Shown piece after piece: positions 6,864 through 31,825 of a stretch of DNA of 32,000 nucleotides. Both the position numbers and the translations under genes were made by a program. Below the pieces are notes generated by a model. The model ran no database searches. It saw only the letters and a list, made by a program, of their open reading frames with translations, and was not told the origin of the DNA. The stretch comes from Oscillospiraceae bacterium (lineage in GTDB: Bacteria; Bacillota; Clostridia; TANB77; CAG-508): the NCBI GenBank assembly GCA_009778695.1, contig WRFS01000021.1, forward strand, positions 1-32,000, written 5' to 3'. How positions within the stretch are numbered: the first letter of the stretch is position 1; each line of letters begins with the position of its first letter.

Positions 6864-6990
6864 ATGTCCGCTTGTGGTGGTTAGTATATATTTTTAAAAA
6901 GCTCCTCCAAGCCTCCGAAGACTCCATGGGCCTCAATGGGCTGTCGTTCGCTTTTTAAAAATATATACTAACCACCACAAGCTACTTTAC
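6864..6990 (+). repeat. Long-stem palindromic element, copy A (31-bp perfect stem 6871-6901/6951-6981, 49-nt core)
   Basis: Arms cttgtggtggttagtatatatttttaaaaag and ctttttaaaaatatatactaaccaccacaag are exact reverse complements. Core is CTCCTCCAAGCCTCCGAAGACTCCATGGGCCTCAATGGGCTGTCGTTCG. 3' flank is GCTACTTT. Confidence 0.85.
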
Positions 6991-7044
6991 TACAAGCTAT
7001 TGATAGTATTGAAAATATTTCTGAAAGGGAAAAAGGGGTAAAAT

Positions 7045-7542
7045 ATGGCAATTAGAATTATAAGAGAATATGGTGACGAAATATTAAAAAAGAAATCGAA
7101 ACCAGTTGAAGTTGTGAATAATAAAATTAGAGAACTAATACAAGATATGAAAGATACAATGCACAAATTTAATGGTTTGGGATTGGCCGCACCACAAGTA
7201 GGAGTACTTAAACGAATATTAGTAATAGACTTGTATGAAGAAGATTTTGAATGCTTAGTTTTAGTTAACCCAGTTATAGAAAAACAACAAGGGAAACAAA
7301 CAGTAGATGAAGGATGTTTAAGTTTTCCAAATCAATTTGGTAAAGTAGAAAGACCAGAAAAAGTAACAGTTAAAGGATTAAATGAATTTGGTGAAAAAAT
7401 AAAAATAGTTGCAACTGGAATACTTGCACAAGCGATTTGCCACGAGGTAGATCACTTAGAAGGGCAGCTTTTTATAGACAAGATTATTCCTGGAACATTC
7501 GAGATAATTAAACCAGAAGATGTTGAGAAGAAGGAAATATAG
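7045..7542 (+). CDS. def: Peptide deformylase
   Basis: Motifs GLAAPQVG, EGCLSFP and HEVDHLEG. RBS AAAGGGG lies upstream. Conserved priA-def-fmt gene order. Confidence 0.9.
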   Translation: MAIRIIREYGDEILKKKSKPVEVVNNKIRELIQDMKDTMHKFNGLGLAAPQVGVLKRILVIDLYEEDFECLVLVNPVIEKQQGKQTVDEGCLSFPNQFGKVERPEKVTVKGLNEFGEKIKIVATGILAQAICHEVDHLEGQLFIDKIIPGTFEIIKPEDVEKKEI

Positions 7543-7585
7543 AAAGAGTAAATAGTTTCAAATTTAAGTACATGGAATAGCGTGA

Positions 7586-7625
7586 GTGGTTGTAGTATCT
7601 TTTTTAAAAAAGATACTACAACCAC
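7586..7625. repeat. Perfect 40-nt palindrome: a core-less relative of the long-stem element family
   Basis: GTGGTTGTAGTATCTTTTTT/AAAAAAGATACTACAACCAC. The arm resembles copy D (GTGGGTGTAATATC) and is flanked by GGAAGC like D. Confidence 0.8.
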
Positions 7626-7675
7626 GGAAGCGAACTATTACAATCGATTTTAAATGTAATAAGGAGGAATTAATA

Positions 7676-8665
7676 ATGCGAATAGTATTCATGGGAACGC
7701 CAGACTTTGCAAAAGAATCATTAGAAACATTATACAATGCAAATCACGAAATAGCATTGGTAATAACCGCACCAGATAAGCCAAAAGGTAGAGGCATGAA
7801 GTTAACTGCATCACCAGTAAAAGAATATGCAATTTCAAAAAAACTTCAAATAGAACAACCCGAAAAAATAACAGGCAATAATGAAATCTTAGAAAAAATA
7901 AAACAGGCAAACCCAGATGTATTATGCGTTGTAGCATATGGGAAAATACTTCCGAAAGAAATATTAACCATTGCAAAAAAAGGAGCAATAAACGTTCATG
8001 GTTCATTACTACCTAAATATAGAGGGGCAGCACCAATACAATGGGCGATTTTAAATGGAGAAGAAAAAACAGGAATAACAACAATGTTTATGAATGAAAA
8101 GCTGGATGAAGGAGATATGTTGCTAAAAGAAGAGGTAAAAATTAGTAAAGATGAAACTTTTGGTGAACTTTGGCAAAGGTTAGCAAAAACTGGTGCTAAT
8201 TTATTAATTGAAACACTAAAATTAATTGAGAAAAACCAAATAATTGCAATACCTCAACCAAATGAAGCAACATATGCACCAAAACTTTCAAAAGAAATAG
8301 CAAAAATAGATTGGGAAAATAAAACTGCTGGAGAAATAAAAAATCTTGTAAGAGGGCTAAATCCAATAATGGGGGCTTATACATTTTTGAATGGAACCAA
8401 AATAAAATTTTGGAAAATAGATGTTGTTAGTTATGAAGAATTTATAGAAAAATTCAATAATTTTAATGAATTTGCAGAAAGAATTAAAAAAATAGAACCA
8501 GGGACTGTAATGCATGCGGATCCAAAACAGGGGTTGTATGTAAAAACAAAAGATACAATAATTTCGGTGTTGGAAATTCAAGGGGAAAACGCAAAAAGAA
8601 TGAGCATAAATGAATATCTACGAGGCAACGAAATTAGACCAATGCAAATGTTCGAATGTTACTAG
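7676..8665 (+). CDS. fmt: Methionyl-tRNA formyltransferase
   Basis: VFMGTPDFA N-terminus and HGSLLPKYRGAAPIQWAI. ATG 7676 follows AAGGAGG. The ORF-track start at 7586 lies inside the palindrome and was not used. Confidence 0.9.
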   Translation: MRIVFMGTPDFAKESLETLYNANHEIALVITAPDKPKGRGMKLTASPVKEYAISKKLQIEQPEKITGNNEILEKIKQANPDVLCVVAYGKILPKEILTIAKKGAINVHGSLLPKYRGAAPIQWAILNGEEKTGITTMFMNEKLDEGDMLLKEEVKISKDETFGELWQRLAKTGANLLIETLKLIEKNQIIAIPQPNEATYAPKLSKEIAKIDWENKTAGEIKNLVRGLNPIMGAYTFLNGTKIKFWKIDVVSYEEFIEKFNNFNEFAERIKKIEPGTVMHADPKQGLYVKTKDTIISVLEIQGENAKRMSINEYLRGNEIRPMQMFECY

Positions 8666-29662: not shown

Positions 29663-29700
29663 TTAAGAAAGTGTCCTAGAATGTAAAACTTTTGATATCA

Positions 29701-29825
29701 TAAGTAGCCTTCCGTGGGTGTAATATCTTTTTAAAAAGCTGCCCGACAGCCCTTTGAGGCATACGGATTACTCCTTGACCTGGAGGGAGTTTTTTAAAAA
29801 GATATTACACCCACGGAAGGCTGCT
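29701..29825 (-). repeat. Long-stem palindromic element, copy D (reverse orientation; stem 29705-29736/29790-29821, core variant 2)
   Basis: 32-bp perfect arms agccttccgtgggtgtaatatctttttaaaaa and their reverse complement. The reverse-complemented core is ACTCCCTCCAGGTCAAGGAGTAATCCGTATGCCTCAAAGGGCTGTCGGGCAGC. Confidence 0.85.
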
Positions 29826-29845
29826 CGTATTCTAGGACATCTTCT

Positions 29846-31561
29846 TTACATATTCCCCAGTTCCTCATGTCTTTTTACTTTAGAAGTAGTCGTTTTAATC
29901 ATAGGTTCAGATGTAATAATAATGTTTTTAATATGCTTATAATTAGGCAAATTTTTATTAATATTTTTTATATCTTGCCAAATTAATCCTTTTAACTCTT
30001 CTTCAGAAATTTCACCAAATTGGTTTTTTGTATGTTCTTTATCATATACTATTTTAGCAGACAATACATAGTCATCTTCTTTTGGGCTTCCAAACACCAT
30101 ATTTTCTGCGATATACGGTAAAGCACTTATTAAAAGTTCTATTTCTTCTGGATAAATATTTTTACCGTTTTTAAGTACAATTACATTTTTCATTCTTCCA
30201 GTAATAAATAAGTATCCATCTTTATCAATATAGCCTAAATCTCCTGAATAGAACCATCCATCCTTTAATACATTATCAGTTGCTTCTTTATTTTCAAAAT
30301 AACCAAGCATTACATTTGGTCCTTTTACAAGAATTTCTCCTATACCGTCTTGATTTGGATTATCAACTTTTATTTCTACGTCAAGCAGTGCTGGACCACA
30401 AGAACCATATCTGACAGCTTTTATATGCTCTAATGCAGCTACAGGAGTTGTTTCTGTTAAACCATATCCTTGAGCTGAAAAAACTCCAAAATTTCTAAAT
30501 CCTGTAACTGTATTTTTATCAATAGCAGCTGCACCATTTATTACAAGTCTTAGGTGTCCGCCCAAGTTATCTAAAATTTCTTTAAACACTTTTCTTCTAA
30601 TATCTATACCAAATATAAGTAGAAAACTACAAACTTTACCCATTATTTTAATTAAATTGGTTTTACCTTGTTTTTCGACTTCAGTCATAATTTTTTTATA
30701 CATGGATTCTAATATTAGTGGAACGCCAACAAATGTAGATACTTTATATTCAACTAAATTTGTTTGAATATGTCTTAATCCATCACAAAATACGTTTGTT
30801 ATGCCGTTACTAAGCATAAATAAAATTCCTATTAATCCTAATGTATGATGAAATGGCAAAAATGCCATATTTATATCTGTTTCGGGATATAATTCATAAA
30901 TAGAACTGAGACCATAGATATTAGAAGTATAGTTTTTATGACAAAGCATAACTCCTTTTGACAGTGATGTTGTTCCAGAGGTAAATATAAGTGAAGCAAA
31001 TTTTTCTTCATCAATGATTGCATCGATATATTCTCTGTTGCCATCATTTATTAATTTTTTTCCGTCATTTAATAATGAAGATAGTGAGAGGAAGGGGGTA
31101 TCGTTTACGCTATCCATACATATAAAATTTTTTACGCTGGTATTTTGGTTGTTCATAATTTTTTTCATAAAGTCTGAATATTCACTTTCAAAAAATATAC
31201 AATCAGCATGACTTATTTTTAGTGAGTTTTCAATTTCTTCTTCTGGCAGCCCTTTGTCTAATGGAACTATTATACCAACACCATTTAAAACTGTAAAGAA
31301 TGTCAATGCCCATTCATAGCTGTTTTTGCCTATTACTGCAATTTTTTTATCTTTAAATCCTAAATGAATTAATGCTGTGCCCAGGTTGTCCATGTTTTCT
31401 TTAAATTTTTTGAATGTAATTTTTTTATAATTAATGTTTTTATCTTTTTTTTCTTTTATTATGAATGCGGTGTTGTCTGCATATTTTTTTGTAGAGAATT
31501 CAAGTAGTTCTTTTACGTTTTTAAATTTAGTTGCTTTGTATAGTATTTTTTTTGGTTTCAT
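29846..31561 (-). CDS. fadD: Long-chain acyl-CoA synthetase (AMP-forming ligase)
   Basis: AMP-binding signature IFTSGTTSLSKGVML, GYGLTET, and GDLGYIDKDGYLFITGRMKN. Confidence 0.85.
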   Translation of the reverse strand: MKPKKILYKATKFKNVKELLEFSTKKYADNTAFIIKEKKDKNINYKKITFKKFKENMDNLGTALIHLGFKDKKIAVIGKNSYEWALTFFTVLNGVGIIVPLDKGLPEEEIENSLKISHADCIFFESEYSDFMKKIMNNQNTSVKNFICMDSVNDTPFLSLSSLLNDGKKLINDGNREYIDAIIDEEKFASLIFTSGTTSLSKGVMLCHKNYTSNIYGLSSIYELYPETDINMAFLPFHHTLGLIGILFMLSNGITNVFCDGLRHIQTNLVEYKVSTFVGVPLILESMYKKIMTEVEKQGKTNLIKIMGKVCSFLLIFGIDIRRKVFKEILDNLGGHLRLVINGAAAIDKNTVTGFRNFGVFSAQGYGLTETTPVAALEHIKAVRYGSCGPALLDVEIKVDNPNQDGIGEILVKGPNVMLGYFENKEATDNVLKDGWFYSGDLGYIDKDGYLFITGRMKNVIVLKNGKNIYPEEIELLISALPYIAENMVFGSPKEDDYVLSAKIVYDKEHTKNQFGEISEEELKGLIWQDIKNINKNLPNYKHIKNIIITSEPMIKTTTSKVKRHEELGNM

Positions 31562-31672
31562 AAGTAATTTCAGTCCTTTCTACTTTTCACTCTTAGTATT
31601 GATTACTAAATTATCATATGCAGTATACTTTGTCAAGGATATTTTAGGGCAATCGTATAAAAAATGTTGCTG

Positions 31673-31825
31673 ATTAATGGTTTAGCCTAAAACTTCCGCC
31701 TCTGGGGTATAGTATAGCTTTTAAAAAGGCTCCTCCAAGCCTCCGGAGATTCCATGGGACTCAAAGGGCTGTCGTTCACCTTTTTAAAAGCTATACTATA
31801 CCCCAGAGGCTACTTGGCTGAGGAA
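31673..31825 (+). repeat. Long-stem palindromic element, copy E (stem 31699-31729/31779-31809, core variant 1)
   Basis: Perfect 31-bp arms cctctggggtatagtatagcttttaaaaagg and their reverse complement. Core is CTCCTCCAAGCCTCCGGAGATTCCATGGGACTCAAAGGGCTGTCGTTCA. Flanks are ATTAATGGTTTAGCCTAAAACTTCCGC and GCTACTTGGCT. Confidence 0.85.

Follow-up and report, generated by a model that had tools for sequence, protein, structure and literature searches.

The intergenic spacers of a 32,000-nt stretch of DNA from an uncultured Oscillospiraceae bacterium (contig WRFS01000021.1, positions 1 to 32,000; hereafter the window) carry a family of noncoding, multicopy hairpin repeats in which a perfect stem of 32-33 bp encloses a conserved apical core of 47-53 nt. 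We favor, with confidence that is about evenly balanced, the reading that these elements are of the kind represented by repetitive extragenic palindromes (REPs), REPINs, and bacterial interspersed mosaic elements (BIMEs), that they bear a separable apical module, and that they would be kept up as single-stranded DNA hairpins with the aid of a trans-acting enzyme. Their construction is best read as two separable layers, a carrier hairpin, or scaffold, and the module at its tip, whose function is not described. The two arms of the stem change together and almost entirely by Watson-Crick replacement, a scaffold tagged with GTAG is found both with and without the core, and the same core occurs at the tip of unrelated hairpins in other gut Clostridia.

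Hairpin Repeats of Three Scaffold Types in One Window

The window corresponds to bases 2698-34697 of the 39,256-bp ENA metagenome contig k141_326448 (ERZ27257295). Its five complete copies, A to E, fall into three scaffold subfamilies (A/C, B/E, and D types), and the core of each carries one of two alleles of a 20-nt cassette. A core-less scaffold and a composite copy accompany them:

6864-6990, plus strand: copy A; A/C-type scaffold, allele-1 core; arms 6870-6902 and 6950-6982 (33 bp), apical core 6903-6949 (loop 47 nt)
6983-7025, plus strand: right tail of copy A, TACTTTACTACAAGCTATTGATAGTATTGAAAATATTTCT; copy C has a homologous tail; boundary drawn by eye
7560-7650, minus strand: core-less D-type scaffold; perfect 40-nt palindrome 7586-7625 with a T6A6 tip
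8658-8970, minus strand: composite copy; B/E-type scaffold, imperfect arms
13409-13570, plus strand: copy B; B/E-type scaffold, allele-2 cassette; arms 13433-13465 and 13515-13547 (33 bp), core 13466-13514 (loop 49 nt)
23553-23736, plus strand: copy C with its flanks; A/C-type scaffold, allele-1 core; arms 23577-23608 and 23660-23691 (32 bp), core 23609-23659 (loop 51 nt)
29667-29846, minus strand: copy D; D-type scaffold, allele-2 core; arms 29706-29737 and 29791-29822 (32 bp), core 29738-29790 (loop 53 nt)
29667-29685 and 29828-29846: outer inverted repeat of copy D
31673-31825, plus strand: copy E; B/E-type scaffold, allele-1 core; arms 31698-31729 and 31779-31810 (32 bp), core 31730-31778 (loop 49 nt)

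An earlier note on this DNA had reported the five full copies, the 40-nt palindrome, and the two cassette alleles; all coordinates were reread and confirmed, as were the alleles. The stems are perfectly complementary, as the note had it, over 32-33 bp, and the composite copy, which it placed at 8676-8955, exists but extends further, to 8658-8970, and lies on the minus strand. The core 15-mer CTCAAAGGGCTGTCG, with up to two mismatches allowed, matched the window five times against an expectation of 0.01. Folded as single-stranded DNA, the elements gave z-scores of -8.2 to -11.0 (copy A, -11.05; the core-less palindrome, -8.49), and none of 200 shuffles folded equally well.

Individual copies are compound. 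Copy B is a mosaic of an E-type scaffold and E-type core ends with an allele-2 cassette; its outer helix (13409-13421 with 13556-13570) is followed by an asymmetric internal loop, and a 160-nt hairpin is visible in the alignment. The palindrome at 7586-7625 is bordered by the D-type left and right flanks CGCTTCC and TCACGCT. The composite copy has two copies of TTTCGAAA at its tip, and the ~190 nt of unrelated sequence between them includes an inverted-repeat element (8753-8879) with 48-nt arms that are 81% complementary (TGTCATTCTGAGCG..AAGAATCTTACT), which occurs once in the termite-lineage DNA collected (see below). The outer inverted repeat of copy D contains GTCCTAGAAT, again the only occurrence in the collected DNA, which resembles one arm of the Bacillus subtilis dif site (..TTCCTAGAATAT..); the resemblance may be coincidental.

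Further Copies in Gut Clostridia

The host is an uncultured, low-GC, spore-forming member of the Oscillospiraceae. Its nearest relatives were found in a sister ENA sample and in JGI samples Ga0123357, Ga0123354, and JGI24705J35276, which are probably termite-gut metagenomes; the label "termite lineage" is used here in that sense. Scanning JGI metagenomes with the pattern GGGCTGTCG-N5-6-TTTTTAAAA yielded at least 16 or so further true copies amid chance matches. A scan of GTDB genomes that required the core together with T5A4 gave no matches, and the stem part is therefore lineage-specific. With the core alone, the GTDB scan matched metagenome-assembled genomes (MAGs) of other gut Clostridia in at least four further lineages: "Clostridia bacterium HGM13634" (at least 20 copies), an "uncultured Lachnospiraceae" MAG (at least five), an "uncultured Clostridium sp." MAG (at least two), and a Hadza-gut Clostridia MAG. 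An nhmmer search over all collected DNA, whose loci are denoted here by L and a number, recovered ~45 distinct copies.

Plasmid records searched by blastn (word size 11) with termite-type, HGM-type, and CAYVYP01-type elements gave no match, nor did phage records searched in the same way with termite-type element B as the sole query; three scans of viral contigs gave no matches, or chance matches in coding sequence only. The elements are not assembly artifacts, because they are present in independent ENA, JGI, Logan, and NCBI assemblies. Many contigs end within an element, including Logan contig L003, which stops inside the left flank of copy E.

The Two Arms of the Stem Change Together

In an alignment of 14 complete termite-lineage copies (alignment A2; 34 stem pairs, 464 cells), 94.4% of stem cells were paired, compared with 74.9% in column shuffles, none of 500 of which reached the observed value, and 42-54% in slid registers. 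Double-sided changes were found in 23 of the 34 pairs. Whereas 85 cells had changed on both sides, only 2 had changed on one side, both to G·U, and G·U occupied 2 of the 464 cells in the long stem; unpaired cells were concentrated at a small internal loop of the D-type copies. The proposal of the earlier note that pairing is constrained or templated is borne out by these numbers.

Within subfamilies, pairwise identity rose inward, from 60-80% for the outer stem through 73-94% for the middle stem to 93-100% for the inner T/A stem. For the core it was 93-95% among copies of A/C and of D type and 83.5% among those of B/E type, where the lower value is due to the cassette of copy B. Taken with the paired change, this gradient indicates that the arms evolve several-fold faster than the tip, in lockstep and nearly without wobble intermediates. 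The outermost stem had been described as different in every copy, which is true of the five in the window; its segments recur at other loci, however, with GCCTCTGGAG present in L044, L047, and L128 (and a near variant, GCCTCTGGGG, in copy E) and GTGGTAGGTATATC at four loci. The window copies look unique because they are drawn from three scaffold subfamilies. The outer stem is a fast-evolving, fully compensated region and not the private sequence of one copy.

This pattern bears on the explanation that the repeats are ordinary miniature inverted-repeat transposable elements (MITEs), or palindromes exapted by the host as bidirectional terminators or mRNA-stabilizing hairpins, with no special mechanism and with perfect stems marking young copies. 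Like MITEs such as Correia/NEMIS, ERIC, RUP, and BOX, which have structured transcripts, the elements form long hairpins, are small (100-200 bp), noncoding, and multicopy, and are polymorphic for presence and absence; every copy lies between genes; and the copies in HGM13634, at least 20 in number, are near-identical down to their stem imperfections, as after a MITE burst. We nevertheless regard this explanation as very unlikely. Outer and middle stems that have diverged by 20-40% and are still paired are not simply young. MITEs share their terminal repeats and vary inside, whereas here the arms are the least conserved part and the middle the most, and unrelated arms occur within one MAG. No clear target duplication was seen at the junctions of copies A and C, where the relatives compared have diverged, and no parental insertion sequence (IS) with matching ends was found. 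A terminator scan of positions 6500-14500 called none at copy A, the palindrome, the composite copy, or copy B, and by eye no T-run follows the stems.

A GTAG-Tagged Scaffold Occurs with and without the Core

The flanks of the carrier are conserved and asymmetric, with ..TCCGC on one side and GCTAC.. on the other, and on the opposite strand 5'-GTAG immediately precedes the stem, at one of its sides only. Types A/C and B/E have 5'-AAAGTAGC-stem, and D-type scaffolds, whether core-bearing or core-less, read AGAGTAG-CGC-GA-stem; seen from the other strand, the D-type flanks are ..TTCCATAAGAAAT..CAATAGT-CGCTCCC before the stem and TCGCGCTACTCTATGTA after it. In copies A, B, C, D, and E, AAAGTAGC lies 5' of the stem on the strand opposite the core, matching the GTAG or GTGG placed 0-2 nt 5' of the hairpin by which REPs are defined (PMC6006769; the GTAG tag also in PMC3733652).

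Core-less D-type hairpins were found at six places (two each in L047 and L128, one each in L029 and L058), with an 18-bp stem that is variable and mostly compensated and a fixed 12-nt loop, TCCTCGCGGCTC. The palindrome at 7586-7625 of the window represents this scaffold too, its tip being a bare T6A6. The 107 kb that holds the six core-less hairpins, sequence collected for the core, also includes four complete copies with a core. Scaffolds with bare T5A5 or T6A6 tips occurred once in 85 kb (loops of at most 8 nt).

Comparison with syntenic DNA, in which element boundaries at empty sites were set by eye, showed that copies have been gained or lost between relatives. Copy A is lacking from the priA-def spacers of L004, L005, and L007, which are 19-63 nt long, in relatives whose Def proteins are 90%, 80%, and 75% identical; the right tail of copy A belongs to the DNA lacking in L004. 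The spacer that holds the palindrome is likewise lacking in L004, where def and fmt overlap. Copy C (~180 nt) is lacking between the ROK and RNase J genes of L128, where the acyl-CoA ligase is 87% identical. The site of copy D is occupied in L128 by a core-less D-type scaffold that points the same way and has another stem; that of copy E, by the left flank of a B/E scaffold and, after it, a different nested element; and the copy that L128 has of its own combines a B/E outer stem with a new middle stem and an allele-2 core. The scaffold thus exists with and without the core, and scaffold, stem segments, and core alleles have been reshuffled. Because modules are nested, gained, and swapped, these intergenic spacers are mosaics of nested palindromic modules.

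Other palindromic families share these spacers. In HGM13634, the whole unit, together with an AT-rich tail, is bracketed by GC-rich GTAGGGGCGG hairpins that recur between priA and def in L007. A second REP-like family consists of GC-rich, GTAG-tagged hairpins (ATGTAGGGGCGG..CCGCCC) at positions 198-235 and near 1992 of L007, at ~237 of L008, and in the flanks of HGM13634 copies (for example, L069); the family is common to a human-gut Clostridia MAG and to a relative that is probably from termite gut. Another repeat family of ~200 bp has GC-rich terminal inverted repeats, AAATCCCCCTCCCGC..GCGGGAGGGGGATTT (L004 1905-2125, L036 ~3549-3750, L128 ~9400-9600). In L004 and L128 it is nested inside an outer inverted repeat, GTTACTA-TTAACACTTTT..AAAACTGTTAA-TAGTAAC, which also frames the composite copy in the window.

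The Apical Core Is Conserved across Lineages

In the termite lineage the core is bracketed by T5A5 on both sides. The same ~45 nt (..CYCC-AAG..GGRG-TAATCCGTATGCCTCAAAGGGCTGTCG..) are found at the tip of unrelated hairpins in MAGs CAAGKK01, CAKPPF01, CAYVYP01, and CANSWM01, which have 27-60 pairs, mostly Watson-Crick, and wholly different arms. Even among five copies within one MAG, the outer stems differ and at most the innermost 10 bp are common; in three of the five, the core is interrupted at one fixed point by an additional perfect hairpin, whose sequence is different each time (L073, L076, and L095, compared with L087). The core is the conserved part and the arms are not, and it always stands at the tip of a long hairpin, whatever the sequence of that hairpin. 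The two cassette alleles are not equivalent: allele 2 is widespread and hardly varies among distantly related gut Clostridia, whereas allele 1 was seen only in termite-lineage copies.

By eye and from minimum free energy (MFE) folds, the core may form a three-way junction on the long stem (P1), with P2 formed by CUCC-7nt-GGRG, a UAA linker, and P3 by CCG-UAU-GCCU-CAAA-GGGC-UGU-CGG. The MFE folds of the HGM13634 and Hadza copies give the same arrangement of P2 and P3. The sole variation in P2 is U-A to U·G and C-G to U·G, and P3 is invariant, which makes the fold plausible but leaves it unproven. On a plain cross-lineage MAFFT alignment, RNAalifold recovered nothing beyond the 4-bp GCCU/GGGC helix, as the stems cannot be aligned by sequence.

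Such features invite the reading that the elements are small structured RNA genes or domains in which the junction acts as RNA (in protein binding, processing, or catalysis) on a long double-stranded stem that need only pair. We consider this possible, if doubtful. About 30 nucleotides of the core hardly differ between several Clostridia lineages, in which the surrounding helix is replaced completely and yet always pairs; a hairpin of variable length and of three sequences, present at one position of some copies and absent from others, looks like part of a functional RNA domain; the changes in P2 are all wobble-compatible on the core strand; and the MFE folds of the HGM13634 and Hadza copies agree with each other. 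On the other hand, near absence of G·U from the long stem would be unusual under selection on RNA alone, and the elements have no preferred orientation with respect to neighboring genes (14 co-oriented, 8 anti-oriented) and no conserved promoter or terminator that we could detect. The core helices have no double-sided covariation, since they hardly vary, allele 1 disrupts the lower part of P3, and the scaffold exists and diversifies without the core.

Rfam 15 gave no match at gathering thresholds for the window, for copy B alone, or for eight loci from other MAGs, in agreement with the earlier note, which recognized no named RNA family; permissive E-values returned only generic microRNA-hairpin models far below threshold. 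The core sequence is absent from the first 200 of the 408 supplementary files of the structured-RNA catalogue of Fremin and Bhatt, and a literature search with it returned primers only. Signal recognition particle RNA, group II intron domain 5, the fluoride riboswitch, and the anti-Shine-Dalgarno sequence were considered for a resemblance and dropped, since no covariance model supports any of them. A small ORF in the core was rejected by eye, as start and frame differ between alleles and lineages.

The option raised in the earlier note of an element that inserts into preexisting hairpins has gained ground, in that the same scaffold is found core-less, with either allele, or with a foreign tip, and the same core is found in unrelated hairpins of other genomes. 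In its strict form, the core and a short inner repeat would be a miniature mobile insert that targets palindrome tips or centers and duplicates a short palindromic target (T5A5), thereby lengthening the stem, and the outer arms would be a preexisting host hairpin. The T5A5 on both sides of the core is at once a direct and an inverted repeat, and the palindrome at 7586-7625 has a single T6A6 in its place; the composite copy has TTTCGAAA on each side of its foreign insert; and other elements of the relatives L004 and L128 are also nested at hairpin centers. Even so, we judge this form unlikely. In the CAYVYP01 copies and in L075, the sequences adjoining the core are inverted rather than direct repeats and bear no signature of target duplication, bare T5A5/T6A6 tips are rare, the core itself lacks terminal inverted repeats and a known candidate enzyme, and its orientation relative to the asymmetric flanks is constant in all termite-lineage copies. 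The bare T6A6 palindrome is equally explained by loss of the core through slippage between T5A5 copies; T5A5 on both sides and a bare-T6A6 scaffold fit either direction, which they do not distinguish.

We suggest tentatively, and with more doubt than conviction, that the ~45-nt module (CUCC-AAG..GGRG-UAAUCC-GUAUGCC-UCAAAG-GGCUGUCG) is a new and widespread small functional nucleic-acid domain of gut Clostridia. It would be either a structured RNA (protein-binding or catalytic) on a long helix or a miniature passenger that colonizes hairpin tips, with carriers kept paired by hairpin-templated copying.

Proposed Maintenance as DNA Hairpins and Relation to Known Repeats

Stem pairing is most likely kept at the DNA level, to which the scarcity of G·U, the lack of orientation bias, and the existence of core-less scaffolds together point. 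The earlier note had named an RNA or a single-stranded DNA hairpin; either may apply, but the few G·U pairs argue against ordinary selection of the stem as RNA only. Under the REP-like reading that we favor, the unit would be propagated, or at least maintained, as a single-stranded DNA hairpin, on the lagging strand or in a cruciform. Intrastrand template switching or hairpin-templated repair could copy a change in one arm to the other; perfect hairpins can be both generated and preserved by template switching (PMC8794818), which would account for compensation in one step, by Watson-Crick pairs only, and for the growth of perfect stems, though it is a mutational process rather than an element family. 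Alternatively, changes in one arm might be removed because only perfectly paired copies are mobilized. The enzyme may act in trans, as a REP-type (Y1/HUH) or other structure-specific protein whose gene lies at another place in the genome. As to the apical module, it might be a passenger in its own right, entering hairpin tips or being swapped there, and its constancy might be due to sequence-specific recognition by some factor once it is displayed as a loop.

The likeness to REPs and RAYT substrates is stronger than the earlier note had claimed, since the D-type carrier also exists core-less as a GTAG-tagged hairpin repeat. Like REPs, which may act as single-stranded DNA or RNA hairpins, the elements are extragenic, multicopy hairpin repeats clustered with other repeats, and one of their strands shows GTAG just ahead of the stem: GTAGC-stem for types A/C and B/E and GTAG-CGC-GA-stem for type D. 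REPINs have conserved ends and a paired middle with frequent compensatory changes (PMC3116915), and here, too, conserved flanks enclose a variable, compensated, paired region, with the difference that the tip is also conserved. The core-less D-type scaffolds, with an 18-bp stem and a 12-nt loop, come closer to REPs in size than do the core-bearing copies.

Several points weigh against this reading. Stems of 32-33 bp and loops of ~50 nt exceed the 7-20 bp and 2-5 nt of classical REPs (PMC6006769). With GTAG on one side only and with asymmetric flanks, the element does not amount to a pair of inverted REPs. Conservation is highest at the tip, which is shared across genera, whereas REPINs conserve their ends and vary the middle. 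The host belongs to the Clostridia, and a survey of GTAG-REPs (PMC3733652) does not mention Firmicutes or Clostridia. No RAYT or other Y1 transposase, which the earlier note had not seen in the window either, nor any other transposase, was found among the ~30 ORFs of the 39-kb contig, to which that search was confined. The junctions of copies A and C showed no clear target-site duplication and no cleavage signature in comparison with L004 and L128, whose flanking proteins are only 87-90% identical and whose intergenic sequence has diverged. Template switching is deduced from the pattern of change and was not observed, and the optional hairpin within the tip and the wobble-only variation of P2 fit an RNA.

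Other systems share single traits. In the BIMEs of enterobacteria, the inner motifs are short protein-binding sites between two REPs. The mosaic build from few modules is alike, as scaffold types, stem segments, and core alleles are reshuffled here and the HGM13634 element is framed by GC-rich hairpins; there is no sequence relation, however, and here a 50-nt module sits at the tip of one long hairpin. IS1397 and ISKpn1 insert in REP loops, which resembles the nested insertion at an extragenic palindrome tip, but these are full-length ISs encoding a transposase, and the tip insert described here is ~50 nt and noncoding.

Further identities were tried and rejected. Intrinsic terminators, with a short GC-rich stem and a T-run, do not fit AT-rich stems followed by GCTACTT. 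PATEs derived from IS200/IS605 have two different subterminal hairpins, whereas each element here is one nested hairpin. Integron attC sites, which have R''/L''-L'/R' arms with a conserved GTTRRRY motif and lie beside gene cassettes and an integrase, were dismissed because copies A-E lack the motif and their neighbors are housekeeping genes in both orientations. An invertible-promoter switch does not agree with alleles that are not reverse complements of one another, or with copy D, which is inverted together with its flanks. For a conserved promoter reading into the core, only the arms of B/E type match (9 of 12), and the region has about as many promoter-like sites as chance would give (47 found, 39.7 expected). 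An abundance of empty long palindromes as targets was likewise not borne out, with one in 85 kb having a loop of at most 8 nt; core-less scaffolds with 12-nt loops do occur.

If the favored reading is correct, GTAG-tagged repeats of the REP/REPIN type extend to uncultured gut Clostridia. The stems also provide an unusually clean natural case of paired evolution by Watson-Crick changes only, in which selection on RNA and templated DNA repair become testable alternatives, and the short sequence conserved at hairpin tips is a concrete candidate for a new RNA motif or protein-recognition site. The repeats break metagenome assemblies and could serve as markers for these lineages.

Genes and Other Features of the Window

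The window has a GC content of 31%, and its genes are housekeeping in character: priA, def, fmt, spoVA genes, and a cluster for a type IV pilus ATPase and platform protein, along with genes for a ROK protein, RNase J, an acyl-CoA ligase, and GH5 cellulases. Several are split or truncated (4768-6862, 12354-13359, ~22600-23510, 26940-28014, and 17618-17935), with priA, spoVAD, and a YhcG-like nuclease gene each in two ORFs, the ROK gene in three, and the prepilin peptidase reduced to its N-terminal domain. The three-way split of the ROK gene is identical in syntenic L128, and the split genes are therefore probably real pseudogenes rather than assembly errors; they hint at genome decay in the lineage.

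At 1-4710, a tandem duplication of ~2.18 kb with 74-94% identity spans GH5 cellulase and Ig-like-domain genes, whose ORFs are fragmented. At 11927-11954, between a convergent 602-aa ORF and the spoVA genes, a perfect AT-rich hairpin of 13 bp is flanked by A and T runs; it resembles a bidirectional terminator and has no relation to the repeat family. Directly downstream of the composite copy (9069-11855) lie a 312-aa ORF with a weak match to Replic_Relax and the 602-aa ORF, which has a pilin-like hydrophobic N terminus; the 312-aa ORF also adjoins a repeat at the same position in L004 (2274-3212).

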